Source: Candidatus Sulfotelmatobacter sp. (GTDB lineage: Bacteria > Verrucomicrobiota > Verrucomicrobiia > Limisphaerales > UBA11358). From it: a stretch of 64,000 nucleotides of DNA. Below, in pieces: positions 4,314-62,384 of the stretch. The translations under genes were made by a program, and so were the position numbers. The stretch lies in the NCBI GenBank assembly GCA_035503455.1, contig DATJTK010000174.1:992-64991 (forward strand), written 5' to 3'. The notes under the pieces are model-generated. The model was not told where the DNA came from, made no database searches, and worked only from the letters and a program-made list of their open reading frames with translations. How positions within the stretch are numbered: position 1 is the stretch's first letter; each line of letters begins with the position of its first letter.

Positions 4314-4327
4314 TTTAAACGCTTTTC

Positions 4328-4341
4328 TTAACAGTTGTTAA
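4328..4341. promoter_or_regulatory. Perfect inverted repeat TTAACA-GT-TGTTAA in the 31-nt spacer between the HNH gene and dcm
   Basis: Read directly at nt 4328-4333 and 4336-4341. It lies 15 nt upstream of the dcm ATG on the minus strand. An operator or hairpin role is only a guess. Confidence 0.3.
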
Positions 4342-4344
4342 CCG

Positions 4345-5151: not shown

Positions 5152-5217
5152 GTTTGGCAAGCACGATGTTGCGAATTGAAATCCGTACCGTTACCATGAC
5201 CGTAAATTATCACTGGC

Positions 5218-6117: not shown

Positions 6118-6290
6118 CCGGTTTTTGAACAACAAAGGCCAAAAGCACGAAGACCGGGCATCGAATTATTGGATCACCGGACATCGGATTGTTAGACCCG
6201 GATTCGCTCGGAAGCTTCCGCCTACACTGAATACGCCCCAAAGCTACGGCGGACAAGACGCCGGGCAGGTTGCTGGATAAATGGATTTGC

Positions 6291-6650: not shown

Positions 6651-6722
6651 GCGGATTTAAACAATGAGGAAAACAGGAATTCAGGAACTTAAATCTGCGT
6701 CAATCTGTGAAATCTGCGGATC
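6651..6722 (+). repeat. About 70-bp intergenic repeat (gcggatttaaacaatgaggaaaacaggaattcaggaacttaaatctgcgtcaatctgtgaaatctgcggatc), copy 1
   Basis: A direct copy at about 90% identity lies at 7402-7471. Shorter relatives occur at 9261-9299 and 13101-13143, and inverted at 59535-59575, 60171-60207 and 61191-61250. Confidence 0.75.
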
Positions 6723-6738
6723 ATGGTTATGGATTGAC

Positions 6739-6787
6739 GGGATGGGGATCCGATTTGGGCAGAGCGGCAGCTCTGCCCTACCGTTTT
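6739..6787 (+). repeat. Intergenic hairpin module, copy 2
   Basis: gggatggggatccgatttGGGCAGAGCggcaGCTCTGCCCtaccgtttt. It overlaps the 3' end of the 6778-7353 ORF and supplies that ORF's stop codon. Confidence 0.6.
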
Positions 6788-23307: not shown

Positions 23308-23657
23308 AGGCGGTTACAATAACGCAATTCCGTAAAAATGCGATTTTTTAATACACTGCCCGTCAATATTGGATAAAAACCGATTTCACCGACGCCCTTC
23401 ACGCCGGATTCAAGTCCTACGGAGGTTTTCCGGCGACCCTTCCACTGGAAACAGCGAAGAGTCTGAGGCCATGTTAAAATTGTGTTAATCAAGGCTTTTT
23501 GCCTTGCCACCAGTCCAACCGATTTTTAGTGTCATTCCATTCATCAGACATGCTGAATTAAACCGCTGACAATCAAAGCCATGCCGACGCCTATGCATGC
23601 GCAGCACGAATGTGGCAGGGCGGCGCTCCCGCGCCGCCATTTCAAATGAACTAACCT

Positions 23658-25127
23658 ATGCAAATCGACGAGGCATTTGTGGATTCCCAGGCGACCAATG
23701 CGGCGGCAATCAAAAACGCGCGCCTGGTCGTCATCAAAAAGAAACTCGTCGGCCTGTTCAAATCCTCGGACGGCTCGCTGCTGTTCGGCGACTGCAAAGG
23801 CAGCGGCGCGGAAAACTACCGGCCTTCCGCGGATTTTTCGGACAGCACCAAACCCGTCTATCGCTGCACCTGCCCGAGCCATCAGTTTCCCTGCAAACAT
23901 TCCCTCGCCCTGCTCTACGCTTATGCCCAGGGACAGAAATTTACCGAGAAGGAGGTGCCGGCGGACATCGCTGAAAAGCGCGCCAAGATCGTCCAACGCA
24001 CTGAAAAAAAGAAGGTCGAAGCCGAAAAGCCTGACAAACCCGAAAAGCCTCACAAGGTCAATACCAGCGCGCTAATAAAGAAAATCGAAACACAGATTGG
24101 CGGCCTCGAATTGCTTGAATCGCTGGTGAACGATCTCGTCCGCTCCGGCCTTGGCACGCTCAACTCCAAGTCCGCGCGCCAAATGGAGGATCAGGCGAAG
24201 CAACTCGGCGACGCCTACCTGCCCGGCGCGCAGAATGCCCTCCACGCATTGACCGGACTTTTCTACCGCACGCAAATCAGTTCCCAGGACGAGTTGAAAC
24301 CCTCCGAACGCGAACAGGTTTACAGCGCCGCGCTCGACCAGTTGAATCGCCTGCAATCGCTGTGCAAGCAAGGGCGAAAATATTTGCAGAACCGGCTCGA
24401 TGAACCGGAACTTAAGCCGGAAACGGAGACGGACATTGCCGCATGGCTCGGGCACGCATGGCAATTGCGCGAACTGAAGGATGCAGGCCTCGTGCAGGCC
24501 AATGTCGAACTCCTGCAACTTGCCTTCAACTCGCACGATGACTGGACGCGCGGCGAATTTGTCGAGACCGGCGTTTGGATGAATTTGCAGACCGGGGCGG
24601 TGCAATTGACTCGCAACTATCGCCCGTATCGCGCGGCGAAGTACATTCGCGAAGACGATTCGTGTTTTCAGGTCATGATCTGCCCCGAGCTATGCATTTA
24701 CCCCGGCAACTTGAATCCGCGCATCCGATGGGAAGCGAGCGAGCCGCGGCCAACGGTCGTGGCCGACTTTGCCCGCGCCCGCGAGTTCGCAAAGCCCGAC
24801 CTGAAGGCCGTCATCAAGGACGTGAAGACCCAATTGAAATCGCCCCTGGGCGATCGCCGTCCGGTGGCATTGGTGAAATATCGCGCGCTCGGCAAAGCTG
24901 GTGAAGATGTCATCATAGAAGACGCTGCCGGCGAACGCCTCGTGCTCGCCGACGACGGCTATCCCGGAGATCCAGCCACGCTGCCGCTGCTGCCGATGCT
25001 GTCATCAGACATCCATCACGACCAGGCGATGCTCGTCCGCTTTCATCACAACCTGGACACCCAAAAGCTCCGCGCCAAACCGCTCAGTATCGTCACGGCG
25101 ACGGATGTAGTGAGGTTGACATATTAA
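23658..25127 (+). CDS. SWIM zinc-finger protein (YehQ-like)
   Basis: 489 aa with YRCTCPSHQFPCKHSLALLYAY (CxCxnCxH SWIM motif) near the N-terminus and a long helical C-terminal region. It is the first gene of the MoxR/VWA cluster. Confidence 0.8.
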   Translation: MQIDEAFVDSQATNAAAIKNARLVVIKKKLVGLFKSSDGSLLFGDCKGSGAENYRPSADFSDSTKPVYRCTCPSHQFPCKHSLALLYAYAQGQKFTEKEVPADIAEKRAKIVQRTEKKKVEAEKPDKPEKPHKVNTSALIKKIETQIGGLELLESLVNDLVRSGLGTLNSKSARQMEDQAKQLGDAYLPGAQNALHALTGLFYRTQISSQDELKPSEREQVYSAALDQLNRLQSLCKQGRKYLQNRLDEPELKPETETDIAAWLGHAWQLRELKDAGLVQANVELLQLAFNSHDDWTRGEFVETGVWMNLQTGAVQLTRNYRPYRAAKYIREDDSCFQVMICPELCIYPGNLNPRIRWEASEPRPTVVADFARAREFAKPDLKAVIKDVKTQLKSPLGDRRPVALVKYRALGKAGEDVIIEDAAGERLVLADDGYPGDPATLPLLPMLSSDIHHDQAMLVRFHHNLDTQKLRAKPLSIVTATDVVRLTY

Positions 25128-25245
25128 TATGTTAAAGCTCTCCCATTGTATGGACCGTCCAGAACCGAGAAGACTCTTGAGAACTGACCTGCCGTCTTGG
25201 AGTGTCTCGACGCGTCGGGATGACCCGCTTCCGAGACTCGCACCA

Positions 25246-25335
25246 CTTCGAATCGTCAATCGCCATTTGAAAGTCCAACGACGTCCGAAAGCGGTGTCGC
25301 GCAGACTTGCCACCGCACTCCAAGACGGCAAGCGC
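25246..25335 (+). repeat. About 90-bp dispersed repeat (cttcgaatcgtcaatcgccatttgaaagtccaacgacgtccgaaagcggtgtcgcgcagacttgccaccgcactccaagacggcaagcgc)
   Basis: A second copy lies inverted at 62227-62316 with only a handful of mismatches by eye. This copy sits inside the SWIM-HEAT intergenic gap. Confidence 0.75.
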
Positions 25336-25523
25336 GGAATGGACGGTTCATGGTCCCTCGCGGGTTCATTGCGCGAACGCACGATTCGCGAATTATTTAA
25401 ACTCAGTGTGAACCGTCACGCAGGACAGGCATCCTGCCTGCCGGTTCAGGGCGCATCCTGCGCCCAGTCAAACACGCGGCTGGAAGCCGCCTTAACCGGC
25501 AGGCAAGATGCCTGCCCTGCGCA

Positions 25524-27338
25524 ATGAGCATCGCCTTGATTGAAGAATCCGCGAAAGAAGTTCGCCGACTTGCCATCGCCGGCAGCCCGCTTGCTGTCGG
25601 AGATTTTCGGCTGAAAAAACTCATCCCGCCGCTGGAACAGGCCGGCGCGAAAGTTCCCGTGTTCGCGCAAGTCGCCAAAGCGATCAACGACGTCGTAAAC
25701 GCGACCGAGGCGGAGTCCGCCGCGCGCCTGCTAAACTTAAGCACGCTGCTCAATGCAATCCTCTATACTCAGGGCCAAACCAGCACGACCGGAGATTTCC
25801 AGAAACTCGAAATTTTTCCCTCCAAATGCTCCACCACACGGACCACCGCCCGCGTGCTCAAACCGTTGATCGAAGCGCTGTCATCGTCCGGCGGCGGACG
25901 ACTTGAAATCATTAAATCCGCTGTCGAACGCGGCGCGTTCAACGATCTGCGTCTCATCGATCCCGCGATCCGCGCGCTGGGTGACAATTATCCGGAAATC
26001 GCCGACCTGGTTGCGGAAAAAATTCTTCCCGCCTACGGCCCGGGAATCATTCCGCGCCTCAAGACCGGACTCGATCTCAAAGGCAAGAAACACGATGCGC
26101 GAAAACTGGAAGTGATGCACCGGCTTGATCCCGTCGGGACGCTCGATCTTTGCAAAAATGCGCTGGAGGATGGGTCACCCGAAGTCAAAATCGCCGCTAT
26201 CGCCTGCCTCGGGCAACACGAAGACTGCCTGCCGCTCGTGCTCGAACAGGCCAGCGCGAAGAACAAACAAGTCCGCGCCGCGGCGCTGGAAGCGCTCGCC
26301 GAACATGACCGTCCCGAGATTACGAAGATTTTCAGCGAACTGATCGGAGGCAAAGCGTTCGACATTCTCGTCCGCCCGTTCCGTCGGTTGCGCAACCGGC
26401 AGGTTTTGAATTCCCTATTGGATGAAGGTCGAACGAAGTTTGATCTGATTCTCAAAGGCGATTCACAGCAAATCTTACTCTTTCACGAGATTTTAAACTG
26501 TCTGGCCTCGCGGAGAGATAGCGAAGTAGAAAAATTTTTCCTGGAGATTTTCGCCAAATCAGTCGCACTAACAAAGCTAGCCTTGCACAACCTTTCCGTT
26601 AAAGTTAATGCGGTCCAAAACGCCCCGATACAAGGGGCTGATTTGATGGAGCGTCTGGTCGAGCGGGTTTACGGGATTGGTTCTCGCGCAGCACTGGAGG
26701 CCATTTTGGAAAGACGCGAGGACCTTCCAACGTCGGTATTTCCGTATGTGTTGCGGAGCGCTGTTCGGACATGGCCTCCGGACAAAGTTTATTCCGAATT
26801 TTCGCCTTTGCTCGAAGGAAAAACGGGGGCGGGAAAAGAAAAGCGCGAAATGTTGGAGGGATTTATCAACACGAGCCACGCCAGGTTGGAACAGCCACCA
26901 GACGCAGGCGAAGACGCTGATCGGCAATCGATGCCAGAGAGCCTGACATGGGACCCATGCTGGCTGGACGCTGCCATCAAGGCCGACTCGCGAGTAATAG
27001 TGTGCTGGCTGGCTCGGCCGAATCATATTGGGTCGTTAAACTATTTGTGGAAACTTGGAACGCCCAAGAGCGCCAACCACACGGCGCTGACCGTCCGGGC
27101 CCTCGCTCGATGCCAACATCCAAACGTGACAGACTTTTTCATTGGACAGGTGGCCCGAAAATCAAAAGGCGCGAACTATCTCGATTACGAATTACAAACA
27201 CTTCTCGAATCAGCGAAACACTTACCCGCATCAGATTTGCCGAAACTCGACGCGTTCGCCACGAAACTGGATGAAAAATTCGCAGACGCATACCTCGTCG
27301 CCATCGAGCCGTTACGCCGACCCAATCAACCCGACTGA
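25524..27338 (+). CDS. HEAT/ARM-like repeat protein, hypothetical
   Basis: 604 aa and all-helical in character, with HEAT-like units such as DGSPEVKIAAIACLGQHEDCLPLVLEQASAKNKQVRAAALEALAEHDRPE. It ends 11 nt before the AAA+ gene. Confidence 0.6.
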   Translation: MSIALIEESAKEVRRLAIAGSPLAVGDFRLKKLIPPLEQAGAKVPVFAQVAKAINDVVNATEAESAARLLNLSTLLNAILYTQGQTSTTGDFQKLEIFPSKCSTTRTTARVLKPLIEALSSSGGGRLEIIKSAVERGAFNDLRLIDPAIRALGDNYPEIADLVAEKILPAYGPGIIPRLKTGLDLKGKKHDARKLEVMHRLDPVGTLDLCKNALEDGSPEVKIAAIACLGQHEDCLPLVLEQASAKNKQVRAAALEALAEHDRPEITKIFSELIGGKAFDILVRPFRRLRNRQVLNSLLDEGRTKFDLILKGDSQQILLFHEILNCLASRRDSEVEKFFLEIFAKSVALTKLALHNLSVKVNAVQNAPIQGADLMERLVERVYGIGSRAALEAILERREDLPTSVFPYVLRSAVRTWPPDKVYSEFSPLLEGKTGAGKEKREMLEGFINTSHARLEQPPDAGEDADRQSMPESLTWDPCWLDAAIKADSRVIVCWLARPNHIGSLNYLWKLGTPKSANHTALTVRALARCQHPNVTDFFIGQVARKSKGANYLDYELQTLLESAKHLPASDLPKLDAFATKLDEKFADAYLVAIEPLRRPNQPD

Positions 27339-27349
27339 CCCTATTCATT

Positions 27350-28447
27350 ATGCCCAAGGAAACTCCAAACGACCTCCGCCAACCCGCCGAAACCCTCTAC
27401 GCCGAAGAACTCGACGCGTTGATTAAAGCCGAGAAGAATCCAGTGCCCGCCGGCTGGCGGATGTCGCCGCGCTCGGTGCTCACCTACATTTGCGGAGGCA
27501 AATGCGGCAAGCTCGATATCACGCCCAAATACATCGGCCATCAGCGCCTGGTGGAAATTGCGATCTCGACGCTCGTCACGGACCGCGCATTGCTGCTCAT
27601 CGGCGAACCGGGCACGGCCAAGTCGTGGCTCTCCGAACATCTCGCCGCCGCCATCAACGGCGATTCCACCAAAGTCGTGCAAGGCACGGCGGGCACGACT
27701 GAGGAACAAATTCGTTACACCTGGAATTACGCCATGCTCATCGCGCGCGGCCCGAGCAACGAGTCGCTCATCAAGAGCCCCATCTTCCGCGCCATGGAAT
27801 CGGGCAGCATCGCGCGCTTCGAGGAAGTCACCCGTTGCGCTTCGGAAGTGCAGGACGCATTGATTTCCATTCTATCCGAAAAACGGCTCTCCGTTCCCGA
27901 ACTGGCCACCGAAATCCCCGCTCAACGCGGATTCTCGGTGATCGCCACGGCCAACACGCGTGACCGCGGCGTCAACGACATGTCCGCCGCCTTGAAACGC
28001 CGCTACAATATCGTCGTGCTGCCCGCGCCGGCGGATTTGGAAACCGAAGTATCCATCGTCACCAAACGCGTGAAGGAACTCGCCGGCAATCTGCAATTGC
28101 GCGCCGAAATTCCGCATGAGGACGCCATCATCAAAATTGTGACCATCTTCCGTGAACTGCGCGCCGGCCAGACGCTCGACGGGAAGAACAAGGTCAAGAC
28201 ACCGTCGGGCGTTCTTTCAACCGCCGAAGCGATCTCATTGCTCGCCAACAGCATGGCGCTCTCCGGCAACTTCGGCGACGGCAATGTCAGCGATAACGAC
28301 CTCGCTTCCGGCCTGCAGGGCGCGGTCATCAAGGATGACGACAAGGACCTGATCGTCTGGAAAGATTATCTGGCCAACGTGATGAAGAAGCGCGGCGCAA
28401 CCTGGCGCGGGCTGTACTCGGCATGTACAGAACACGCGGGGGAATAG
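27350..28447 (+). CDS. MoxR-type AAA+ ATPase (AAA_5; YehL-like)
   Basis: Walker A LLLIGEPGTAKSWL, a Walker B-like IARFEEVTRC followed by VQDALISILSEKRLSV, and sensor ATANTRDRG. 365 aa. Confidence 0.88.
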   Translation: MPKETPNDLRQPAETLYAEELDALIKAEKNPVPAGWRMSPRSVLTYICGGKCGKLDITPKYIGHQRLVEIAISTLVTDRALLLIGEPGTAKSWLSEHLAAAINGDSTKVVQGTAGTTEEQIRYTWNYAMLIARGPSNESLIKSPIFRAMESGSIARFEEVTRCASEVQDALISILSEKRLSVPELATEIPAQRGFSVIATANTRDRGVNDMSAALKRRYNIVVLPAPADLETEVSIVTKRVKELAGNLQLRAEIPHEDAIIKIVTIFRELRAGQTLDGKNKVKTPSGVLSTAEAISLLANSMALSGNFGDGNVSDNDLASGLQGAVIKDDDKDLIVWKDYLANVMKKRGATWRGLYSACTEHAGE

Positions 28448-28459
28448 TATCCTCAATTG

Positions 28460-30829
28460 ATGAGTGCCGCGCCCCATATCTTTGGCGTCCGCCATCTTTC
28501 ACCGGCGGCAGCGTGGCATTTGCGGCAGTTGCTGGATCGCGTCCGCCCAAAGCTCGTGTTGATCGAAGGTTCGGACGACGCGGACGAATTGATTCATCAC
28601 ATCGTCAGCCCGCAATCGAAACTGCCGATTGCGATTCTTGCCTATACCGCCGACGCGCCGGTGCGGACGTTTGTTTATCCGCTGGCATCCTATAGCCCGG
28701 AATACCAGGCGCTCGTCTGGTGCCAGCAAAACAAAGCGAAGGCCCGTTTCATCGATTTGCCGTCGTCTGTTTTTCTCGGCCTGATGGACCGGGACGATGG
28801 GACGGCGCCGGTTGAAAAAGATAAACCTGAGGAAGCCGACGAAAAACAAAAAGGAAAGGATAAGCCTACGTTGGCCCAACTCGTTAAGGACGAGGACGAG
28901 GACGAGAAAGTTGTCGAACAAAAACCCAGGCGGGAATCTATTTATGACCGCCTCGCAGAACTGGCCGGCGAACCCGACTACGAAACCTATTGGGAACGTC
29001 ATTTCGAGCAGTTGCACGCCAATGACAGTTACCTGAACGCCGCGCGCAGTTACGGCGCGGAATTGCGAGAGATGGAGGATTTTTCCACGCGTCACGCTGC
29101 CGAAAACCTGGTGCGCGAGGCCTACATGCGACGGAAGATTCAACAAGCAATCGCCGAAGGCTTCAAACCGGAGCAAATCGTGGTAGTGACCGGCGCATTT
29201 CATGCCACTGCCCTTGGCGCCGATTTGCCGCCGATGACCGATGAGGAATTCGCCAAACTCCGCAAGCGCGCGTCCAAAATGACGCTGATGCCGTATTCAT
29301 TTTTCAAATTGTCGTCGCAATCCGGTTACGGCGCGGGGAACCATGCGCCCGCTTACTTCGAACTCGTATGGAATTCCTTCAACGAGAATACAGCGCCCGA
29401 GTTGCCCGAATTATTTCTCACGAGCGTCGCCCGCGAGTTGCGGTCATCCGGCACTTTTCGTTCAACTGCCGAGGTCATTGATGGCGTTCGCCTGGCCGAG
29501 ACGATGGCCGGGATGAAGAGTTCGCGTCCGACCTTGCGTGAACTCCAGGATGCCGCAGTAACGTTGCTCGGCCAGGGTGATCCGGCGGTCGTTCGCGAAT
29601 CATTGTTGCGCGTGGAAGTGGGCACTGCCATCGGCGCGCTGGCCAAGGGCGTCAGTCAAACTTCGATTCAGGACGATTTTTACCGTGAATTGAGCCGGCT
29701 GAAATTGGAGCAATTCAAGACGGGCGTGAAGCGCGATCTCGATCTCGACCTGCGGGAGAATCGCCGGGTCAAGAGCGCGGAAGCTGCGTTCCTCGATTTG
29801 CATCGCTCCAGTTTTCTGCATCGGCTTGCGGTGCTCGAAGTGCCATTCGCGCAAAAGCAGGCGGTGCGACAGGACGGAACAACCTGGGCCGAACGCTGGG
29901 CGCTGCAATGGACGCCGGAGGCCGAAATCGCGATTGTCGAAGCGGTGTTGCTGGGCGAGACGATCGAACTGGCGGTCGCCTTCAAGTTTAAGCAGCAGCT
30001 TGAGAAATGCACGGTGATTGCTGAAGCCGCCCAGGTCATTCGGCGCGCATGCGAATGCGGGATGAGCGGCTCAATTGAACTCGCGCGCCAGACCCTGCAA
30101 CGGCTCGCGAACGATTCTTCGGAATTCACAGCATTGGCCGGCGCGGCCGCTGAACTGGGTCTGGTGATTCGCTACGGCGACGTCCGCCAATTCGACGCCG
30201 AGCCGCTCAAACCGTTGCTCGAACAGTTGTTTCTCGAAGGCGCGCTCGGGCTCGTCGGCGCGTCGAACTGCGATCTTGCCGCCGCAAAGGCGATGCTCAT
30301 AGGCGTCAACGAAATGAACAAAGTCGCGCTGGATTACACGTCGTTGATTGACGAACCGCTCTGGATATCCGAACTCCAAAAGCTCGCCCAGGCCGACCAT
30401 TTGAATCCAATGCTGTCCGGTTACGCCTGCGCCCTGCTCGTCGAGCGTGGATTGATTTCGAACGAAGAACTGGCGAAGGAAGTTTCGCGCCGGCTGTCGC
30501 CGGGCATCGCCGCCGATTTGGGCGCAGGATGGTTTGAGGGCCTGGCGCAGCGAAATCGTTACGCGTTGCTGACGCGCCTCGCGCTCTGGGAACAACTCGA
30601 TAGTTACGTCGGCGCATTGACGGAGGAGGAATTCAAGCGCGCGCTCGTGTTTCTTCGCCGCGCGTTTGGCGATTTTTCGCCGCAGGAAAAACACAGCATC
30701 ACCGAAAACCTCGGCGAAATCTGGGGCGTGAACAAGGATGCGGCGAGCGAAGTGTTGAGCGCGGAACTGAACGAAGACGAAAAGAAAAAGCTCGATGAAC
30801 TGAGTGATTTCAATTTTGAGGAACTGTAA
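28460..30829 (+). CDS. DUF5682 family protein (YehM-like)
   Basis: About 789 aa. The N-terminus HIFGVRHLSPAAAWHLRQLLDRVRPKLVLIEGSDD fits the DUF5682 pattern as I remember it. There is an acidic insert (DEDEDE) and a long helical C-terminus. The track start at 28457 is TTG; ATG is at 28460. Confidence 0.72.
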   Translation: MSAAPHIFGVRHLSPAAAWHLRQLLDRVRPKLVLIEGSDDADELIHHIVSPQSKLPIAILAYTADAPVRTFVYPLASYSPEYQALVWCQQNKAKARFIDLPSSVFLGLMDRDDGTAPVEKDKPEEADEKQKGKDKPTLAQLVKDEDEDEKVVEQKPRRESIYDRLAELAGEPDYETYWERHFEQLHANDSYLNAARSYGAELREMEDFSTRHAAENLVREAYMRRKIQQAIAEGFKPEQIVVVTGAFHATALGADLPPMTDEEFAKLRKRASKMTLMPYSFFKLSSQSGYGAGNHAPAYFELVWNSFNENTAPELPELFLTSVARELRSSGTFRSTAEVIDGVRLAETMAGMKSSRPTLRELQDAAVTLLGQGDPAVVRESLLRVEVGTAIGALAKGVSQTSIQDDFYRELSRLKLEQFKTGVKRDLDLDLRENRRVKSAEAAFLDLHRSSFLHRLAVLEVPFAQKQAVRQDGTTWAERWALQWTPEAEIAIVEAVLLGETIELAVAFKFKQQLEKCTVIAEAAQVIRRACECGMSGSIELARQTLQRLANDSSEFTALAGAAAELGLVIRYGDVRQFDAEPLKPLLEQLFLEGALGLVGASNCDLAAAKAMLIGVNEMNKVALDYTSLIDEPLWISELQKLAQADHLNPMLSGYACALLVERGLISNEELAKEVSRRLSPGIAADLGAGWFEGLAQRNRYALLTRLALWEQLDSYVGALTEEEFKRALVFLRRAFGDFSPQEKHSITENLGEIWGVNKDAASEVLSAELNEDEKKKLDELSDFNFEEL

Positions 30830-32034
30830 TGCCAAACCCGGTGAACCAGGAACAATTGAAGCGCTGGCGGCTGATTCTCGGCCGGCACGCGCAGGATTCC
30901 CTTGCCCAGATGGGCGGCGGCGGACTCGAACTTTCGCCTGACCAAATTGGCATGGACGAAGCGCTCGCGGCCATTTACGACGAATCTTCCGGCGAAGCCG
31001 ACGGACAGCGTGGCCGGCAACGAAGCGCAGGCCTCGGCCCTTCCGCGCCAAATCTGGCAAAGTGGCTGGGGGACATCCGCAATTATTTCAAGGAAGACGT
31101 CGTCACCGTCATCCAAAACGACGCCATCGAGCGCAAAGGACTCACACAACTCCTATTTGAACCGGAATTGCTGAAGAATGTCGATCCGAATCCGCAACTC
31201 GTCGGCACGTTGATGTCGCTGAAAGGCCGCATCCCGGAACGGACGAAGGAAACGGCGCGCATGGTCGTGCGCGCGGTGGTCGAAAAGATCAAACGCCTGC
31301 TCGAACAACGCATCCGCCAGGCCGTGCTGGGCGCGCTCAATCGAAAAGAACATTCGCCCCTGCCCAACTCCGCGAACATCGACTGGAAATGGACCATTGG
31401 CCGCAACTTGAAAAATTACCAGCCGGCGCTTGGAACGATCGTGCCGGAGCGAGTTTACTTTTACTCGCGCGCCCAGCGCTCGAACAATTGGACCGTCATC
31501 GTCTGCATGGACCAAAGCGGTTCGATGGCCGAATCGGTCGTTTACGGCTCCGTGACCGGCTCGATTTTCGCCTCACTGCCCGCGCTCGACACTCGAGTGG
31601 TTGCGTTCGACACCAATATCGTGGACCTGACTGAACAATGCGGCAACGACCCGGTGGATATGATTTTCGGCGTCCAACTCGGCGGCGGGACGGACATCAA
31701 CAAAGCCATGGCATATTGCGAGCAATTCATCACCGACCCCGGCCAGACCATTTTTTTCCTTATCAGCGACCTTATCGAAGGCGGCAATCAGTCCCAACTC
31801 ATCCGCCGCATGCATGAAATGGCGGCCTCGGGCGTGCGTGTCATCACGCTGCTGGCTTTGTCAGACAGCGGCATCCCAATGTTTGACGAACAAGTCGCCA
31901 AAAAACTATCCGCCGGAGGAGTGCCCTGTTTCGGTTGCACTCCCAACAAACTCCCCGAACTCATTGAGGGCGTTCTCAAGAAGCATGATTTGAAAGCCCT
32001 GGCCGCGCGCCTGGCGACGAAGAAGGAGAAGTAA
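30829..32034 (+). CDS. VWA domain protein, CoxE-like (YehP-like)
   Basis: 401 aa with MIDAS VCMDQSGSM, then GGGTDINKAM and FLISDLIEGG. Its start overlaps the previous stop (TAATG). Confidence 0.85.
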   Translation: MPNPVNQEQLKRWRLILGRHAQDSLAQMGGGGLELSPDQIGMDEALAAIYDESSGEADGQRGRQRSAGLGPSAPNLAKWLGDIRNYFKEDVVTVIQNDAIERKGLTQLLFEPELLKNVDPNPQLVGTLMSLKGRIPERTKETARMVVRAVVEKIKRLLEQRIRQAVLGALNRKEHSPLPNSANIDWKWTIGRNLKNYQPALGTIVPERVYFYSRAQRSNNWTVIVCMDQSGSMAESVVYGSVTGSIFASLPALDTRVVAFDTNIVDLTEQCGNDPVDMIFGVQLGGGTDINKAMAYCEQFITDPGQTIFFLISDLIEGGNQSQLIRRMHEMAASGVRVITLLALSDSGIPMFDEQVAKKLSAGGVPCFGCTPNKLPELIEGVLKKHDLKALAARLATKKEK

Positions 32035-32329
32035 GACACGGAAGAAAATCCGCGCAGGTATCAGTCACGATGCTATCAACAATCTCGCCGCCCCGAACCA
32101 AAGAAATACCCGCGCGACCGCAAAGCATCTGCCAACTTTTACCATCGCTGGAAAATGTCCATAGCTCATCTCCGTCCTGCATCATCATAACGATCTTGCG
32201 CCATTGAGCGTTTTGAAATCCAAATGGAATACCGGCCGGGCCGAGCCGCGAATCTTCGAACGTGTTTTCTGCCTCAGCTTGCTCTCGTGTGACCTTATGT
32301 TTGAGCCATTCTTTGTGCATAACAATCAC
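31976..32329 (-). CDS. Hypothetical small protein
   Basis: 117-aa ORF convergent with the VWA gene, overlapping its 3' end by 59 nt. The core ...FGFQNAQWRKIVMMMQDGDELWTFSSDGKSWQMLCGRAGISLVRGGEIVDSIVT looks like a real globular domain, while the tail looks like read-through. Confidence 0.4.
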   Translation of the reverse strand: MIVMHKEWLKHKVTREQAEAENTFEDSRLGPAGIPFGFQNAQWRKIVMMMQDGDELWTFSSDGKSWQMLCGRAGISLVRGGEIVDSIVTDTCADFLPCLTSPSSSPGARPGLSNHAS

Positions 32330-34855: not shown

Positions 34856-35311
34856 TCATTTTAGAAAATCCGTCAGCGCCCGCCAGTGGCTTCCCGCGTC
34901 GAATGCTTCTCTATCGATCAACCGAAGCCGTCTGGTTAAATCTTCAAGGTCTTGTTTGGCGGAAGAAAAATATTCGTTCAACAGTCTAAAGCTTGTCGCA
35001 AACCGATCAACACTCGTGTTTAGAACGCTCAGCGGCTGTTCCAATTCCACGTCAATCCGTACAACGGAACCGCCTATCTCGTCGGCGCAAACGAACGCGC
35101 TGCCAGCATTCGGGAATTTCTCCTCACCAAATACTCGGTATCGGAGCCAGTCCGGTGGTAAAGGGGGCCCGCCGACAACAGGTTCTGTGGTCACTGGCCG
35201 CAAATGCCACATGAGTCTTGAGAAATTAAATGAAACCCATGTTTCCCGAAACTGCCACCTTGCCCGATTCGGCAGCGAATCGACCAATTGCTTTTGAAAT
35301 TCGGGATTCAC
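34856..35311 (-). CDS. Hypothetical protein, possibly SUKH/SMI1-KNR4-like immunity-type fold
   Basis: 151 aa. LPPDWLRYRVFGEEKFPNAGSAFVCADEIGGSVVRIDVE...LNEYF vaguely resembles SUKH family patterns. This is a weak call. Confidence 0.4.
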   Translation of the reverse strand: MNPEFQKQLVDSLPNRARWQFRETWVSFNFSRLMWHLRPVTTEPVVGGPPLPPDWLRYRVFGEEKFPNAGSAFVCADEIGGSVVRIDVELEQPLSVLNTSVDRFATSFRLLNEYFSSAKQDLEDLTRRLRLIDREAFDAGSHWRALTDFLK

Positions 35312-35395: not shown

Positions 35396-36724
35396 TCAAA
35401 CCTGGCCCGGCGTTTTCTCCTCGTAACCTTCATCCGTCTTTTGTTCGATGAGAAGCGCCATCGCATCGGCTGCGGCTTGCTCGTCTGCAAATGTTTTCGT
35501 CTTGGATTGGCCGGCTGAACCAATGCGTCCCCATCGCGTAGTCATGTTGTTGCCCGATTGTGAAACTTCCCAGAATTTGCTGGAGCTGCCTTCGACAAAC
35601 TCGAAGTAGCGGGGTTTGGAATCGCTGCCACCCGAAATCGAAACCGCCGGTGGCGCTTCGGGTTTCGTGGACACCGGCGATTGCACACTTTTAAGGGCGA
35701 CATCATGCCGCACGCCGACCCAACTTGGAAAACGCGGCACGCCCGCGTCAGAAAGCTCCTGGTAGCGAAAGGTCACGGTGGCGCCGATGCCCGGCGGATT
35801 CTCGCGTTCGCCGTCGCTGAAACCCGTGCCAATGGCGAAATCGGCGCCATCCGGCAGGCGCACCAACAACGCGCCCATTCGTCCCTTATGGCGTCCCGCG
35901 CCGGCCTGATGCCCAATGACAATGGCTTCCGCATCATGAAACGTTTTGACCTTCAGCAGCGTGGTTGAGCGGCCGGCAACATACTTCGATCCCGGTTGCC
36001 GGAGCATTAGCCCCTCGCCTCCGAGTGCCTCGACGCGCTTCAGTTCCGCGCGCAGGGCATCCAGGTTTTTGCATCGTTCGTGGACATGCTCCCGGGCGAA
36101 TTTTGCCACGGCCCTTGCAAGCGCATCCTTCAGAAAGGCAAGACGCTCCTCGAAACCGCCATTCGCCGCGGGCGCATCGAAGATGAGAAAGCGCACTTCC
36201 TTCCAAAGCTCGTTCTTGTCCTGGCGCCGGACGATGCTGACGGTGCGTTGAAACTTCTTGCGGTCAATCCAAAGTTCCCCATCAAGCGGCACCGCGGGCA
36301 GACCCTCAATGAACCAATCCGGCGCGTAATAGATGTGGCCCTGGCGCGAAAGAAATTGTTTGCCGTCCCAATAGGCGCGCACACCGTCGAGTTTTTCGCT
36401 CATCCACCAGCCGGACAAATCGGCGGCGTTGTCCCAACTCTCAGCCAGCAACAGCGGCGGGCCGGAATCAGCGTCCGCTTCACCGTCCGCAGTCTGCGCT
36501 GCGCGAACAGGACGTTGCGGCAATGCGCCACCGATGCGCGCTTCCTCCGCCGCATCTCCGCGCAGTTTGCGCAGGTGCTTGCAGGTCCTTTTCTCGATTC
36601 CGATGGATTGGTTGCGCCAGGCCGGGCAAGTGCATGAATAAACGCCACCGGTATTTTTTAAAACGTAAGGCTTCGCTCCCGAGCCCTGCATTTCCGTTGA
36701 TTCTCCGTCTTGTAGGTCGGGCAT
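35396..36724 (-). CDS. ATP-dependent DNA ligase (LigE/minimal type) with N-terminal SWIM zinc finger and C-terminal WGR domain
   Basis: 442 aa. SWIM motif YSCTCPAWRNQSIGIEKRTCKH (C31-x-C33-x14-C48-x-H50, nt about 36575-36634). Adenylation motif MSEKLDGVRAYW (K111, nt 36392-36394), then EGLMLRQ, LLKVKT and an OB region. The C-terminal WGR is YFEFVEGSSSKFWEVSQSGNNMTTRWGRIGSAGQSKTKTFADEQAAADAMALLIEQKTDEGYEE (nt about 35420-35632). Confidence 0.85.
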   Translation of the reverse strand: MPDLQDGESTEMQGSGAKPYVLKNTGGVYSCTCPAWRNQSIGIEKRTCKHLRKLRGDAAEEARIGGALPQRPVRAAQTADGEADADSGPPLLLAESWDNAADLSGWWMSEKLDGVRAYWDGKQFLSRQGHIYYAPDWFIEGLPAVPLDGELWIDRKKFQRTVSIVRRQDKNELWKEVRFLIFDAPAANGGFEERLAFLKDALARAVAKFAREHVHERCKNLDALRAELKRVEALGGEGLMLRQPGSKYVAGRSTTLLKVKTFHDAEAIVIGHQAGAGRHKGRMGALLVRLPDGADFAIGTGFSDGERENPPGIGATVTFRYQELSDAGVPRFPSWVGVRHDVALKSVQSPVSTKPEAPPAVSISGGSDSKPRYFEFVEGSSSKFWEVSQSGNNMTTRWGRIGSAGQSKTKTFADEQAAADAMALLIEQKTDEGYEEKTPGQV

Positions 36725-37098
36725 GGGTGATGGATATTTGAGGGTTGGCGGTTATCTGTGTTGCGTTGTCTTCCAAAAGTATTTGGACGATTTAACTTCT
36801 GTCAATGCCATCGTCCAAATTCATACCTTGAACTCTCCGGCACCGCCAAAGGCGCGCGCCACCATACCAGCCTGGGGCCTCGCCCCAGGATATCGAGCAT
36901 AGAGCACCCCAAGGGCTGAAGGCCCGTCTTATCAATTCGCACCCGGCGAACCAACGTTTGATTCCACGCGTCAAAATCCACAGGTTGATCCATGCTATAA
37001 ATCGCGCCGTTGGCGCTTATCCCATTTCGCCAGGAACATGGGGCGTTGCCCCATGCTGGTATAAAGTGGGCCTTTGGCCCATCATCCCGCCGCTCTAG

Positions 37099-38670
37099 CT
37101 ATTGCTCCGACTCCCTCTTCTTCACCGCTTTCTTCTTCGGTTTGGCCTCCGCACTTTCGGCTTCCGCTGGAACTGGAGCCGCAACCGCAACCGCCTTCGG
37201 TCCGCCGTACAGGTCGAAACCTTTGGTGATATTTTCTTCGATCAACTTTTTCGTCAGCGCCTCGGCCCGAGTCTCAGTGTGGGCGAACAGAGTTGTGACT
37301 TCGAGCGGCGTCTTGCGACCGGCGGAAAAATCCGTCCAAAAGATGACGTAGGGAAATGCCCCAGCCGTCGCGGGCCGCCGTCCGACCACCAGTTTGCGCA
37401 CGGCCAAAGCGCCTTTGACTTCCTTGCTATAAACCTCGCGGCGCACGACTTCGAGGACCGGCAGATTCCGATTGATCAATTCAGGCGCCGCAATCTCGCG
37501 GCCGGAAAGCTGGGCGATCCGCACGGCCTGCGGAGTGAAATCCTTGTCCGCGCGCAGGCGATGAAACGTCGGCAGCAACAACCTCGGACTCGCGGCGAGC
37601 CCGTCAAAACTCCAGCGCTGGTTATTCCAGCCAAAGACCTGCTGTCCGCTGGCTTCCTCGTCGGGCGGCAGAATGTCTTCCGCCTCCACTTCCACGACGA
37701 AACCGGGCTTCACGAAGCGCACGGGACGGCCATCGCTGTCGCTCATCGCCAGCGGCGCATCCACTCGCAGCGTGGACAACCGCCCCAGCCAGTCTACGCG
37801 GTCCTGGTCATTGAAACCCGAGCCGACGCGCGCGATCGATTGCAATTGCAGCCCGCGTTCGCTCGCCGGATAAGCCAAGGCCGTCAGAAGCGACATCATG
37901 CCGTAATTGCCTTCAAACTCGCCTTCCACAAAACCAACTACCGCCGCGTCCACGGTCCGGCGCGGTTTAAGTTTGCAGACTTCAGGCCGATCCAACCGGC
38001 GGATGACGAGACCTTCCAGCCCGCCGGAAGTCTTCTGATCAAACAGTTTCGGCAGGTCCGCGCCGCTCACCTCGCCACCTTCGGCGCGATGTACCAGCTT
38101 GTCCATATTGGTGCCGGCCAATTCGCCGATTAATTTCCAAATCGTGAGAAAATCAGATTGATGCACGCGCAGGTCGCGTCCGTCGTGCATAATTACATCG
38201 AGCACGGCCAGGCGGAAGCGGCCCGCATCGGCCGGGTCATTGGAATAACTGGCGCGCGTGACGTCAGCGCTCGCGCAACGGCGGCCATCCACAGTCTCGC
38301 GAAGATAAAGTTCGGCGCGCAATAGCGCTTTCTTCGTACCGTGCGCCTTGAGATTCGCCGCCAACTCCTTCAAACACGGCAGTCCGACACGAGCCCGACC
38401 CGATGGCGCATTGAATGTGAAGATGTCCGGACTGCGTCCCGCTTCAAAATATACGAACACACCTTCCCCATCGTATTTGGTGGTTTCGAGCACGCGACTG
38501 TCCGGGCCGTAACGCGCGGGCAGGTCCGCGGGTTTGATGGCAATGAAACGATTCGAGACTTCGACGTCGTATTGCTCGGCCACTTCCATGAGCACGCGGT
38601 CGGTCACGGCGGCGCGCGGCCCGAAGGCGTAGTCGCCGCTCTTTTTGGTCAATCTGGCCAGGTCAATCAT
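37099..38670 (-). CDS. ATP-dependent DNA ligase (nucleotidyltransferase + OB) with about 130-aa C-terminal extension and Lys-rich tail
   Basis: 523 aa with motif I ETTKYDGEG (K65, nt 38476-38478), LRAELY, EGLVIRR, CKLKPRR and motif VI-like PTFHRLRADKD. The tail is AEAKPKKKAVKKRESEQ. Its start overlaps the upstream stop (ATGA at 38667-38670). Confidence 0.8.
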   Translation of the reverse strand: MIDLARLTKKSGDYAFGPRAAVTDRVLMEVAEQYDVEVSNRFIAIKPADLPARYGPDSRVLETTKYDGEGVFVYFEAGRSPDIFTFNAPSGRARVGLPCLKELAANLKAHGTKKALLRAELYLRETVDGRRCASADVTRASYSNDPADAGRFRLAVLDVIMHDGRDLRVHQSDFLTIWKLIGELAGTNMDKLVHRAEGGEVSGADLPKLFDQKTSGGLEGLVIRRLDRPEVCKLKPRRTVDAAVVGFVEGEFEGNYGMMSLLTALAYPASERGLQLQSIARVGSGFNDQDRVDWLGRLSTLRVDAPLAMSDSDGRPVRFVKPGFVVEVEAEDILPPDEEASGQQVFGWNNQRWSFDGLAASPRLLLPTFHRLRADKDFTPQAVRIAQLSGREIAAPELINRNLPVLEVVRREVYSKEVKGALAVRKLVVGRRPATAGAFPYVIFWTDFSAGRKTPLEVTTLFAHTETRAEALTKKLIEENITKGFDLYGGPKAVAVAAPVPAEAESAEAKPKKKAVKKRESEQ

Positions 38671-39371
38671 GTTGCGGACGCCGGCGCTGCCGGCCGTTTG
38701 AGTTCCTGATCCGACAACAACAACAGCAGACGATAACGCGCATCGTCGCCCTTACCCTCCACTTCACCATAAAGAAATCCGCGAAACGGCGTGCCTCCGT
38801 CACGCAGCACCAGCGGCCCCGCGCCTTTCGGGCCGGCGCCCACGAGCGCCATGCTTTGGCTTTCCTGCAGCGACTTCGCCAGGCCATGAAGAAAATCAAA
38901 CGTCAAGCCGTCGGTATGGACAAGCTGTTGCATCCCGCGAAAGACAAATTTCGTCAGGCATTCCTTCACCGGCATGCGGCGAACGATTTTCAGCGGCTGC
39001 GTCGTGTCCACGTTCGCCGTGCGGAATACGCGGCTGCGCCGCTCCTTCTCCTGTCCGTCCGGCGCGTAAACCACCTCGACCTCCTTGAATTCAGTCGCGA
39101 TCGCCGGCTGCGCGCTGCGGGTATCGAGGTAAACCGCTGTTGCGTCGCGCATCAATCGACCCGCAAGCTGGAAATCCAACTCCGGATCGCCCTCAATCAA
39201 TTGCGCGGAATTCGCGGACGCCATGAAGTTTTGCCCATTCAACGCCTGCACGCGTTTGACTTTGCCTGCGCTGGTCACCTGCTCCAGCGGCGCGGCGTTC
39301 TTCTCAGCCATGGGCGAACTTAGGCCCACGCGCGCGCTACGGCCTTCGTTTTCGAGATGAAGCGTGAACAT
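38667..39371 (-). CDS. Hypothetical protein (orphan), second gene of the ligase operon
   Basis: 234-aa ORF, translationally coupled to the ligase gene, with no recognisable motif. Its composition looks like a real protein rather than an antisense artefact. Confidence 0.6.
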   Translation of the reverse strand: MFTLHLENEGRSARVGLSSPMAEKNAAPLEQVTSAGKVKRVQALNGQNFMASANSAQLIEGDPELDFQLAGRLMRDATAVYLDTRSAQPAIATEFKEVEVVYAPDGQEKERRSRVFRTANVDTTQPLKIVRRMPVKECLTKFVFRGMQQLVHTDGLTFDFLHGLAKSLQESQSMALVGAGPKGAGPLVLRDGGTPFRGFLYGEVEGKGDDARYRLLLLLSDQELKRPAAPASAT

Positions 39372-42873: not shown

Positions 42874-43836
42874 GTGAATGCTGAATCATCCCCTGCTGCC
42901 GCCAGCCCCTGGATCAAAAAATTCCTGGCGCACCTGGCCACAGACCGGGGCGCGTCGCTTTATACGCAAAAAAATTATCGGCAGGCGCTTGAGGAATTTT
43001 CACGGTGGCATGCCCAGGAACGCCAATCGGCGCCGGCCTGGGACAAGCTCCAGCGCGACGACTTTCGCGGTTATTTGCGGTACCTGGGACGGAACAATTT
43101 GAGCCGCGCGGCGACGTCTCTGCGCTTTTCCGCGCTGCGCACATTCTACAAATTCCTCATCCGGCACGGCATGCTGGCCAGTTCGCCTATAAAAAATTTA
43201 TCGCTGCCCAAACCCGAAAAGCGGCTGCCTAAATTTTTAACCATTCAGCAGATGGAAGCTTTGCTGACTGCGCCATTGCAACTGGCACAGTCGCGCCAGG
43301 GCAAAAAAGGAGCGGGACGCCCCGTGTCCATGGCCGTGGGGTTGCGGGACGTAGCGGTCCTGGAAACGATTTATTCCTGCGGCCTGCGCATCAGCGAATT
43401 GTGCGGCCTGCGCGCCGATGACATGGATTGGGCGCAACAAATCGTCCGGGTCCGCGGCAAAGGCAAAAAGGAGCGGCTCGTGCCCATCGGCAAACCGGCG
43501 TTGGATGCCATCGAGCACTATTGGAAAACATTGAAAATGCCGCCCGCGGGAGCATCGCCGGTTTTCTTCAGCGAAACGAGAAGCCACGCGCCGTTGCATC
43601 CGGTCCAATTATCGCGACGGTTAAAGCAATATCTCGCTTTCGCGGGCCTGGACCCAAATTTGACGCCCCACAAGCTGCGTCACAGCTATGCCACGCACAT
43701 GCTCGATGCCGGGGCGGATTTGCGCAGCGTCCAGGAATTGCTCGGCCATGCGCATTTGACGACGACTCAGATTTACACGCACGTCACCACCGAACGGCTT
43801 AAGAAAGCCTATGATGCGGCCCATCCGAGGGCGTGA
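42874..43836 (+). CDS. Tyrosine recombinase, XerC/XerD family
   Basis: 320 aa with the catalytic pattern ...GLRISEL...HKLRHSYATHMLDAGADLRSVQELLGHAHLTTTQIYTHV. GTG start. Confidence 0.88.
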   Translation: MNAESSPAAASPWIKKFLAHLATDRGASLYTQKNYRQALEEFSRWHAQERQSAPAWDKLQRDDFRGYLRYLGRNNLSRAATSLRFSALRTFYKFLIRHGMLASSPIKNLSLPKPEKRLPKFLTIQQMEALLTAPLQLAQSRQGKKGAGRPVSMAVGLRDVAVLETIYSCGLRISELCGLRADDMDWAQQIVRVRGKGKKERLVPIGKPALDAIEHYWKTLKMPPAGASPVFFSETRSHAPLHPVQLSRRLKQYLAFAGLDPNLTPHKLRHSYATHMLDAGADLRSVQELLGHAHLTTTQIYTHVTTERLKKAYDAAHPRA

Positions 43837-62226: not shown

Positions 62227-62316
62227 GCGCTTGCCGTCCTGGAGTGCGGTGGCAAGTCCGCGCGACACCGCTTTCGGGCGTCGTTGGACTTTCAAATCGC
62301 GATTGACGCTTCGAAG
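62227..62316 (-). repeat. About 90-bp dispersed repeat, inverted copy of 25246-25335
   Basis: gcgcttgccgtcctggagtgcggtggcaagtccgcgcgacaccgctttcgggcgtcgttggactttcaaatcgcgattgacgcttcgaag. Confidence 0.75.
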
Positions 62317-62384
62317 TCGTCCGACTCCCGAAGCGAATCTCCTCGATTTTAACACTTCCAACATCGTCTTCAAATTTGCCCGAT

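Follow-up and report, generated by a model that had tools for sequence, protein, structure and literature searches.

The window analysed here is a stretch of 64,000 nucleotides (nt) from Candidatus Sulfotelmatobacter sp. (contig DATJTK010000174.1, forward strand). It contains a five-gene cassette that almost certainly encodes an autonomous machine of five subunits. The core of the machine would be composed of a YehL-type MoxR ATPase, a CoxE-type VWA adaptor with a metal ion-dependent adhesion site (MIDAS) and a DUF5682 protein. A SWIM protein with an OB-like (oligonucleotide/oligosaccharide-binding) end and a HEAT-repeat protein would be added to this core as accessories. Judged by homology, the core trio is common to E. 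coli YehLMP and to all other DUF5682 loci examined. The function that we favour, with a probability of about one in three, is that of a DNA-associated, ATP-driven complex that remodels and cleaves proteins and is linked to DNA damage.

The cassette and its MoxR-VWA pair

Five open reading frames (ORFs) lie on the same strand (+) between positions 23658 and 32034, in the order SWIM-HEAT-MoxR-DUF5682-VWA. The features are as follows.

23658..25127, + strand: gene 1, SWIM protein, 489 residues; Pfam SWIM PF04434 at 2.9e-5, above the cut-off
25128..25523, no strand: SWIM-HEAT spacer, 396 nt; small dispersed repeat with nested inverted repeats
25524..27338, + strand: gene 2, HEAT-repeat protein, 604 residues; Pfam HEAT_2/HEAT at 2.9e-9
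27350..28447, + strand: gene 3, YehL-subfamily MoxR AAA+ ATPase (by sequence), 365 residues; Pfam AAA_5 at 3.4e-39
28460..30829, + strand: gene 4, DUF5682/YehM-family protein, 789 residues from the ATG; DUF5682 at 5.7e-149, profile positions 1-712 of 727
30829..32034, + strand: gene 5, CoxE-type VWA protein, 401 residues; Pfam VWA_CoxE at 3.3e-45

The coordinates and Pfam assignments agree with the five same-strand genes and domains named in a first-pass annotation of this DNA. The motifs that it quoted are found in the translations, namely the SWIM finger CTCPSHQFPCKH, GEPGTAKS in the MoxR protein and DQSGS in the VWA protein. The spacings can also be read from the sequence: 11 nt separate the HEAT and MoxR genes, 12 nt separate the MoxR and DUF5682 genes (counted from the ATG at 28460), and the DUF5682 and VWA genes overlap in a TAATG at 30827-31. 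An alternative start of gene 4, a TTG at 28457, would give a protein of 790 residues. An NCBIfam scan returns no specific name for any of the five proteins. An Rfam scan of 20-40 kb of the window finds nothing within the operon or the SWIM-HEAT spacer. A scan for promoter and terminator consensus sequences does not rise above shuffled sequences, as expected for a verrucomicrobial genome.

Gene 3 is assigned to the YehL subfamily of MoxR AAA+ ATPases. Its product is 40% identical to E. coli YehL over 357 of 365 residues (BLASTP, E 3e-83). Among 83 sequences, 37% of the residues are invariant, including the Walker A sequence GEPGTAKS, RFEE at the Walker B position, ATAN and an RDRGVNxMSAALKRR block. 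Other MoxR-type NCBIfam models (MadB, GvpN) match the window protein weakly. The YehL subfamily is one of seven MoxR subfamilies, and to our knowledge the YehL system is the sole MoxR system of E. coli besides RavA-ViaA. The status of YehL as the named type of a MoxR subfamily, stated in the first-pass annotation, is confirmed in the literature (PMC3893208).

The VWA protein is 35% identical to E. coli YehP (BLASTP, E 8e-72). It contains a conserved N-terminal helical region (RWRLILG) followed by a VWA domain with a complete MIDAS motif. The DQSGSM, GGxTD and DL..gg blocks are conserved in 68 sequences.

A 117-residue ORF on the opposite strand (31976-32329, -) is convergent with the operon and runs at its 3' end into the final 59 nt of the VWA gene. 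Its ribosome-binding site, GGAGGTG, is a good one, and it matches no family.

Conservation of the cassette and its relation to yehLMPQ

Relatives were collected with YehL-specific peptide patterns from 185,579 species genomes, one genome per GTDB species, and at least 594 were confirmed. The distribution is patchy, with about 600 or more relatives among all these genomes. The best 80 of the at least 594 relatives were compared as loci, and the window proteins were searched against all ORFs of these loci. Individual loci are cited below by number (L001 and so on). The 80 loci are distributed as follows.

Verrucomicrobiota: 5 loci
Planctomycetota: 26 loci
Bacillota (Paenibacillus, Bacillaceae, Clostridia): 34 loci
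Bacteroidota: 9 loci
Myxococcota/"delta" and unclassified bins: a few loci

The complete set of five genes occurs in 61 of the 80 loci, with the same order and a single strand in 60 of them. The five-gene arrangement is thus far beyond chance. Most of the remaining loci without five genes end at contig ends. In three Pirellulaceae loci (L015, L018 and L020), MoxR, DUF5682 and VWA are kept, and SWIM and HEAT genes were not found within 10 kb. Two Bacteroidota loci contain MoxR alone. L080 (Capnocytophaga sputigena NCTC11653) and L083 encode a MoxR protein about 70% identical to that of the window; the other four genes were not found in the flanks searched, which extend 10 kb on each side in L080 and 6.0 and 3.5 kb in L083. 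The wide conservation of the cluster, claimed in the first-pass annotation, is thus borne out in at least four phyla.

The junctions of the cassette are tight. The MoxR and DUF5682 genes usually overlap by 4 nt (ATGA), the DUF5682 and VWA genes lie 0-3 nt apart, and over the cassette as a whole 4-nt overlaps or gaps of 0-60 nt are frequent. Such tight junctions imply co-translation and a fixed stoichiometry of the products. The cassette also tolerates insertions. A 213-residue gene with no assigned family lies between MoxR and DUF5682 in L002 and L003 (L002 14407-15048), an Abhydrolase_2 gene occupies the same junction in L004 (14386-15105), and 2.7 kb separates DUF5682 from VWA in L059 (14416-17133). 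The HEAT genes are duplicated in tandem in L061 (6199-9924) and L062 (6242-10010).

The MoxR products of the 80 loci are 69-94% identical to the window protein. The five subunits differ in their median identity to the window protein.

MoxR: 74%
VWA: 62%
DUF5682: 53%
SWIM: 46%
HEAT: 32%

This gradient is compatible with a constant engine to which a variable recognition arm is attached. The identity of the engine across Verrucomicrobiota, Planctomycetota, Bacillota and Bacteroidota implies strong, common selection on the same activity.

The genes that flank the cassette are not conserved beyond close relatives in the 80 loci; flank clusters are common to close relatives only. The 43 adjacent same-strand genes contain 93 Pfam families, each seen in two loci at most, and a recurrent client gene is absent. 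The cassette is thus an autonomous module with no linked client. None of the findings that the first-pass annotation had named as speaking against its proposal was made; for example, no housekeeping partner recurs beside the homologues.

The first-pass annotation took the cassette for the same gene set as E. coli yehLMPQ. This holds for three of the five genes, as MoxR, DUF5682 and VWA are homologous to YehL, YehM and YehP, and does not hold for the SWIM and HEAT genes or for the gene order. E. coli carries yehL-yehM-yehP-yehQ with yehF, molR and yehI upstream. The two operons are alike in the order of the L, M and P genes, in tight coupling and in the presence of a SWIM-finger protein, whose finger lies at about residues 67-90 in both YehQ and the window protein. 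In E. coli, the SWIM gene is last and the DUF4132/WGR genes (YehI, MolR and YehF) are upstream, whereas in the window the SWIM gene is first and is followed by the 604-residue HEAT gene. BLASTP finds no match between the SWIM protein and YehQ, and hhalign gives a probability of 0.3-0.6%, with an alignment confined to the ~20-residue finger, which occupies the same N-terminal position in both. For the HEAT protein, no significant match to YehQ, YehI/DUF4132 or single DUF5691 sequences was obtained. Neither the window cassette nor any of the 80 related loci yielded DUF4132, and WGR occurs in the window only as a ligase fusion 3.4 kb away. The window-type engines are 69-94% identical to one another and only 40% to YehL. 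Because the SWIM protein is not detectably homologous to YehQ, the HEAT protein has no detectable E. coli counterpart and the gene order is different, the cassette is, by sequence criteria, a sister variant of yehLMPQ and not the same gene set.

Three architectures with a common AAA-DUF5682-VWA core can be read from annotated plasmid and chromid records.

Type A (window): SWIM-HEAT-AAA-DUF5682-VWA
Type B (Deinococcus, Methylosinus, Rhizobium): SWIM-DUF5691-AAA-DUF5682-VWA
Type C (E. coli, Iodobacter): DUF4132-AAA-DUF5682-VWA-SWIM

The type B cassettes of Deinococcus taeanensis, Methylosinus trichosporium OB3b and Rhizobium plasmids share the gene order of the window, and the SWIM proteins of types A and B are homologous over the first ~220 residues (hhalign probability 99.7). 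They differ in that gene 2 encodes a DUF5691 protein of ~480 residues instead of the 604-residue HEAT protein, and their DUF5682 proteins are only 28-30% identical to that of the window. A type C-like locus in Streptomyces encodes a DUF4132 protein, a 1639-residue "DNA-binding protein", an AAA protein, a 1257-residue DUF5682 protein and a 625-residue hypothetical protein; a separate VWA or SWIM gene is not annotated there.

The yehLMPQ genes are present in 5353 of 5426 complete E. coli genomes (98.7%). Such core status fits a role in cellular maintenance better than a defence island. No functional study of DUF5682, DUF5691, yehLMPQ or the SWIM, MoxR and VWA combination was found in the literature searched, in line with the earlier statement that no function has been established for the cluster. 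In the passages found, yehQ appears as a decoy protein in a crosslinking study and as a listed mutated gene, cloned and deleted, in a study of butanol tolerance, and neither passage gives it a function.

The SWIM-HEAT junction of the window stands apart from its relatives: it measures 396 nt, compared with mostly ~5-130 nt in more than 60 related loci. A 110-nt segment of the spacer (25226-25335) is 91% identical to 62227-62335 on the opposite strand, and both sites are intergenic. Long, nested inverted repeats (25150-25351 and 25419-25521) lie around this dispersed repeat. A 132-codon ORF (25129-25527) with tight junctions on both sides was considered as a sixth gene and rejected. Its Arg-rich translation is junk-like and matches no family, the repeat occurs elsewhere in the window, and the relatives have short junctions with no such spacer. 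For these reasons, the spacer is an inserted small repeat specific to this genome and not a sixth gene. The 110-nt repeat looks like an element of the miniature inverted-repeat transposable element (MITE) or repetitive extragenic palindromic (REP) type that splits an otherwise tight junction, and it probably lies outside the system.

The DUF5682, SWIM and HEAT subunits

The DUF5682 subunit probably contributes an enzyme domain, which the first-pass annotation had overlooked. The protein is 24% identical to E. coli YehM over its full length (BLASTP, E 4e-32). Its AlphaFold2 model (pLDDT 79.5) is composed of an α/β N-domain (~1-280) and an all-helical repeat arm (~300-789). In the N-domain, strands and helices alternate at residues 6-278, and a disordered acidic insert occupies residues 114-158. 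When 43 diverse DUF5682 N-domains were scanned one by one, 22 matched PF01963 TraB_PrgY_gumN (best 1.8e-5) and five matched PF04187 ChaN/Tiki.

Residue conservation was assessed in 134 full-length representatives of the family, among them proteins of types B and C and E. coli YehM. R11, H12, E36, D99, E183, R219, E220, M223, G245 and H248 are conserved in 131-134 of the 134 sequences and include the motifs GxRH ... E ... RE ... GxxH. Active hydrolases of the TIKI superfamily (Tiki, RRSP and erythromycin esterases among them) are defined by GxxH...E...GxxH with a His-Glu pair, and their catalytic logic is described as His-Glu or 2His-2Glu (PMC6254334). The invariant pattern of DUF5682 would match such a centre. 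The N-domain is a probable member of the TIKI/TraB/PrgY hydrolase superfamily, and DUF5682 a putative hydrolase or protease subunit. Matches at the family level point to this superfamily (Tiki Wnt protease, RRSP Ras/Rap1 endopeptidase, PrgY/TraB, EreB and ChaN), and the invariant His and Glu residues would resemble its catalytic centre. Unlike these proteins, DUF5682 is cytoplasmic, is fused to a 500-residue helical-repeat arm, contains the acidic insert and resides in a MoxR-VWA operon. At 50% identity, the DUF5682 family falls into 3890 clusters among 1.84 billion representatives; only the top ~55 are of the window type, after which the scores drop. PDB sequence and profile searches with the DUF5682 and SWIM proteins return chance matches only.

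The ChaN matches bear on a second explanation, in which the cassette is an assembly or cofactor-insertion chaperone of the CoxD-CoxE, NorQD, CbbQO or CobST kind. It would mature an unlinked client, and a ChaN/TIKI-like DUF5682 would handle a metal or tetrapyrrole. CoxD-CoxE, NorQ-NorD, CbbQ-CbbO, RavA-ViaA and CobS-CobT likewise pair a MoxR-clade AAA+ ATPase with a VWA/MIDAS adaptor and share the CoxE Pfam family with the cassette, whose VWA protein is itself of the CoxE type. Every MoxR-VWA pair characterised so far serves in maturation or remodelling (PMC3893208, PMC7159879). Five DUF5682 N-domains match the haem-binding ChaN family, and strong conservation and core status in E. coli suit a housekeeping role. 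However, the window cassette does not belong to these client-linked couples: it has no linked client gene and has three extra conserved subunits, DUF5682, SWIM and HEAT, which they lack. No client or metalloenzyme gene recurs among the 43 adjacent same-strand genes, and the flank clusters are common only to close relatives. The SWIM protein, the OB-like domains and the ligase and LexA links described below have no obvious place in a cofactor pathway, and the invariant His/Glu/Arg/Asp set would point to catalysis over passive binding. We consider a chaperone of this kind improbable, though not strikingly so.

In an AlphaFold2 model (pLDDT 79.8), the SWIM protein begins with an α/β module that contains the CxCx(n)CxH finger (residues 70-81). 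A Lys-rich linker (~100-135) and a helical stretch (136-275) follow, and two β-barrels (279-489) form the C-terminal part. The Pfam SWIM domain is found in all 26 family members, and the closest named homologues, at 79-93% identity, are from Verrucomicrobiae metagenome-assembled genomes (MAGs) (120 clusters). In a Foldseek search, the top matches to the C-terminal half are the HIN domains of AIM2, IFI16 and p202 (E 2.4e-3, probability 0.97). Further matches include Teb1-AB, the D. radiodurans SSB and EF-P/eIF5A, with ribosomal proteins at lower rank. The best-matched folds are tandem OB folds, mostly of nucleic-acid binders, with binders of double- and single-stranded DNA at the top. The C terminus may thus contain two OB-like barrels resembling HIN, RPA and SSB, a weak but coherent match. 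The modelled fold suggests that the SWIM subunit probably binds nucleic acid. Matches of the SWIM protein to iHD-CE and VHL are weak and were treated as noise.

The lower-ranked matches to EF-P/eIF5A and ribosomal proteins are also compatible with an RNA- or ribosome-directed remodeller, in which the SWIM/OB subunit would bind RNA. Such a machine would be analogous to midasin/Rea1, a dynein-type AAA protein with a MIDAS domain, and the combination of AAA_5 with MIDAS follows midasin logic (PMC7159879). The very high, housekeeping-like conservation of the engine is in keeping with this. Yet in none of the 80 loci is the cassette linked to ribosomal, tRNA or RNA-processing genes, the top fold matches are DNA binders, and the distribution over species genomes is patchy. 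An RNA-directed role is very unlikely.

The HEAT protein contains a conserved N-terminal region of ~160 residues, PBS-lyase-type HEAT repeats at ~198-300 and a divergent helical remainder. HEAT_2 is found in 24 and HEAT_PBS in nine of 26 members, and a PDB profile search retrieves alphaRep/HEAT proteins at 2e-30. With a median identity of 32%, it is the fastest-evolving subunit. Two of the 26 members match DUF5691 at 1.8e-5, and hhalign against DUF5691 gives a probability of only 12.5%, a weak and at most suggestive link between HEAT and DUF5691.

The proposed link to DNA damage and its rivals

Two features downstream of the cassette involve DNA ligases.

35396..36724, - strand: LigE-type ATP-dependent DNA ligase with C-terminal WGR; PRK09125 at 3.8e-101, PDB 4d05 at 5.4e-63
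37099..39371, - strand: 234-residue protein and divergent LigD-like ATP-dependent ligase (523 residues); weak ligase family matches

LigE is normally a small periplasmic enzyme. The LigE-WGR protein, encoded 3.4 kb downstream of the cassette, contains the Pfam domains DNA_ligase_OB_2 and WGR and carries an N-terminal extension of ~80 residues. In L005, the orthologue follows the VWA gene after 46 nt and is co-directional with it; in L004, it adjoins the VWA gene, so that a LigE-WGR gene is near the cassette in three Verrucomicrobia loci. The LigE-type ligase gene is followed by a SUKH-4 immunity-type gene in the window (34856-35311, -) and by an R2K_3 ATP-grasp gene in L004. The LigD-like ligase gene overlaps the 234-residue gene by 4 nt, and the 234-residue protein finds no match in Pfam, NCBIfam or PDB. 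In the Bacillota MAG L044 (4303-6437), this pair immediately precedes the SWIM gene and is encoded on its strand, with gaps of 2 and 65 nt. The ligase neighbours are possibly associated with the cassette.

A second line of evidence comes from LexA sites. In three of 33 Bacillota loci, the region upstream of the SWIM gene contains a perfect Cheo/LexA box flanked by the -35 and -10 elements, compared with a background of 0.56% per 250 nt. These loci are from Bacillus sp. and Priestia iocasae (L063 and L074) and from Saccharibacillus (L061). The two Bacillaceae loci contain SOS-type promoters in which TTTACA is followed by AGAAC(A/G)T(T/A)TGTTCG and then TATAAT (L063 ~6700-6766, L074 ~6705-6769), and a similar LexA box is present in Saccharibacillus (L061 ~4620-4640). 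In E. coli, molR, the WGR/DUF4132 gene that heads the yeh cluster, is under LexA control and has a known SOS box (PMC6590174). The sequence CTGGATAAAATTACAG, a LexA-box-like site, lies 10 nt upstream of yehF in E. coli K-12 (L001 3450-3465) and would be consistent with the listing of molR as an SOS gene. WGR and DUF4132 genes of Deinococcus belong to the DdrO DNA-damage regulon (PMC8533742). The 1639-residue protein of the Streptomyces variant, with its annotation as DNA-binding, points the same way. The first-pass annotation had argued for a nucleic-acid-related role from the SWIM finger and the ligase-WGR neighbours. The predicted OB-like C terminus, the ligase linkage in two phyla and the LexA boxes add to that argument, in which DNA binding itself is a prediction.

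The favoured DNA-damage function can be formulated as a series of steps. Nucleic acid would be bound by the SWIM/OB subunit, the most likely ligand being abnormally structured or protein-bound DNA, and the HEAT solenoid would serve as a scaffold and specificity arm. The MIDAS site of the VWA protein would capture an acidic peptide of the target protein, and the MoxR hexamer would remodel or extract the target using ATP. The TIKI/TraB-like domain of DUF5682 would cut the target, or an ester or peptide link on it, through its invariant His-Glu centre. The net outcome would be that proteins on DNA are removed or processed when the cell is under genotoxic stress, and in some lineages the ligase neighbours would seal the DNA afterwards. 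The proposed logic is that of p97/Cdc48 with SPRTN/Wss1 in the eukaryotic repair of DNA-protein crosslinks, where an AAA+ unfoldase acts with a DNA-dependent protease and a DNA-binding module, and where DNA damage either induces the system or precedes its action. The likeness is one of analogy, as the ATPase clade, the protease fold and the adaptor are all different and no homology is claimed.

Several observations weigh against this function. The resemblance to OB/HIN folds is weak (E 2e-3, TM 0.2-0.37) and was seen with a predicted model. For DUF5682, the TIKI assignment depends on sub-threshold per-sequence matches, and the window protein itself matches PF04187 ChaN only at E 0.02. A Foldseek search with the whole 789-residue DUF5682 model is dominated by the arm and returns helical-repeat noise in its top 50, and an hhalign comparison of the N-domain profile with a single TraB protein, E. 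coli YbaP, aligns the second GxxH only and is not significant. The TIKI superfamily also includes non-enzymes, for example ChaN and PMT. Only four of the 84 cassette loci examined show ligase linkage (the window, L004, L005 and L044). The LexA box is missing from most relatives, with 30 of 33 Bacillota loci lacking it, including about 20 from Paenibacillus, and the upstream region of the window (23308-23657) contains no GAAC-N4-GTTC, GTTC-N4-GAAC or CTGT-N8-ACAG. Several plasmid copies lie amid insertion sequence (IS) elements, toxin-antitoxin pairs and restriction-modification genes. In E. coli, yehL and yehM are bound by H-NS and silent, which is more typical of acquired DNA (PMC3686432).

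The last of these points also enter a third explanation, conflict or defence. Here the MoxR-VWA pair would be an ATP-dependent threshold switch, the SWIM/OB and HEAT subunits would detect the nucleic acid or protein of an invader, and the effector or activating protease would be the TIKI-like domain, leading to abortive infection or plasmid restriction. Four conflict systems have been described in which MoxR-vWA couples play the part of switches (PMC7159879). Among the subunits, HEAT diverges most, the flanks differ between genomes, and divergent cassettes are found on plasmids beside type I restriction-modification, IS element, VapC/Phd and Imm26 genes. The SUKH-4 gene lies in the neighbourhood of the window cassette, and the E. 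coli genes are silenced by H-NS (PMC3686432). The surroundings of the cassette in the related verrucomicrobial contig L004 include a WGR cluster, a reverse transcriptase and another SWIM protein. The L004 cluster (1-6169), 4 kb upstream of the cassette, encodes WGR with MTES_1575, DUF5984, a 623-residue protein, a 503-residue SWIM-like protein, a 65-residue ORF and RVT_1, and its predicted gene content has the look of a conflict system.

On the other side, a PADLOC-DB 2.0 scan gives two marginal matches (E 0.004 and 0.001; 14 bits) and none for MoxR, DUF5682 or VWA. The first-pass annotation cited the MoxR-vWA conflict systems of the Aravind group, but the ternary systems described there do not include it, and SWIM, YehL and TraB are not mentioned (PMC7159879). 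Those systems (Kaur et al. 2020, PMC7159879) resemble the cassette in having a MoxR-vWA couple with further conserved components, and a weak partial match to bpMoxR covers 50 residues (6e-7). Their third components (VMAP, iSTAND, FtsH and β-propeller) and variable effectors were not found in the five proteins; a VMAP-M18 match in one of 26 SWIM proteins is at chance level. The cassette is far more conserved than these systems and has no hypervariable or swappable effector. Its engine is 69-94% identical across phyla, yehLMPQ is core in E. coli (98.7% of genomes), and the single match in 50,697 phage records is an unannotated faecal contig. A conflict role is on the whole unlikely.

The favoured DNA-damage function has a bolder form. 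The cassette and YehLMPQ would together represent a hitherto unrecognised bacterial genome-maintenance machine that combines MoxR/VWA and a TIKI-fold protease with SWIM-tandem-OB targeting and clears DNA-trapped proteins, such as DNA-protein crosslinks and trapped topoisomerases or ligases. In this specific form the proposal is speculative and has a decidedly low probability. If true, it would provide a bacterial functional analogue of p97-SPRTN and the first function for the YehL subfamily of MoxR and for DUF5682.

The predicted TIKI/TraB-type centre of DUF5682 and the predicted nucleic-acid binding of the SWIM subunit turn an orphan operon into testable hypotheses. The LexA-box promoters of Bacillaceae and the ligase fusions point to the stresses worth trying first, and the E. 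coli homologue makes genetics easy. What appears to be new is the placing of DUF5682 in the TIKI superfamily, the OB-like C terminus of the SWIM protein, the three architectures and the ligase and LexA links, all of which rest on prediction.

Two minor features lie further downstream in the window. A sub-threshold match to the small RNA family Acido-Lenti-1 is present between the two ligase genes (37037-37081, +; 24 bits compared with a gathering score of 37, E 0.078). A gene for a XerC/D-type tyrosine recombinase (42874-43836, +) lies 11 kb downstream of the cassette.

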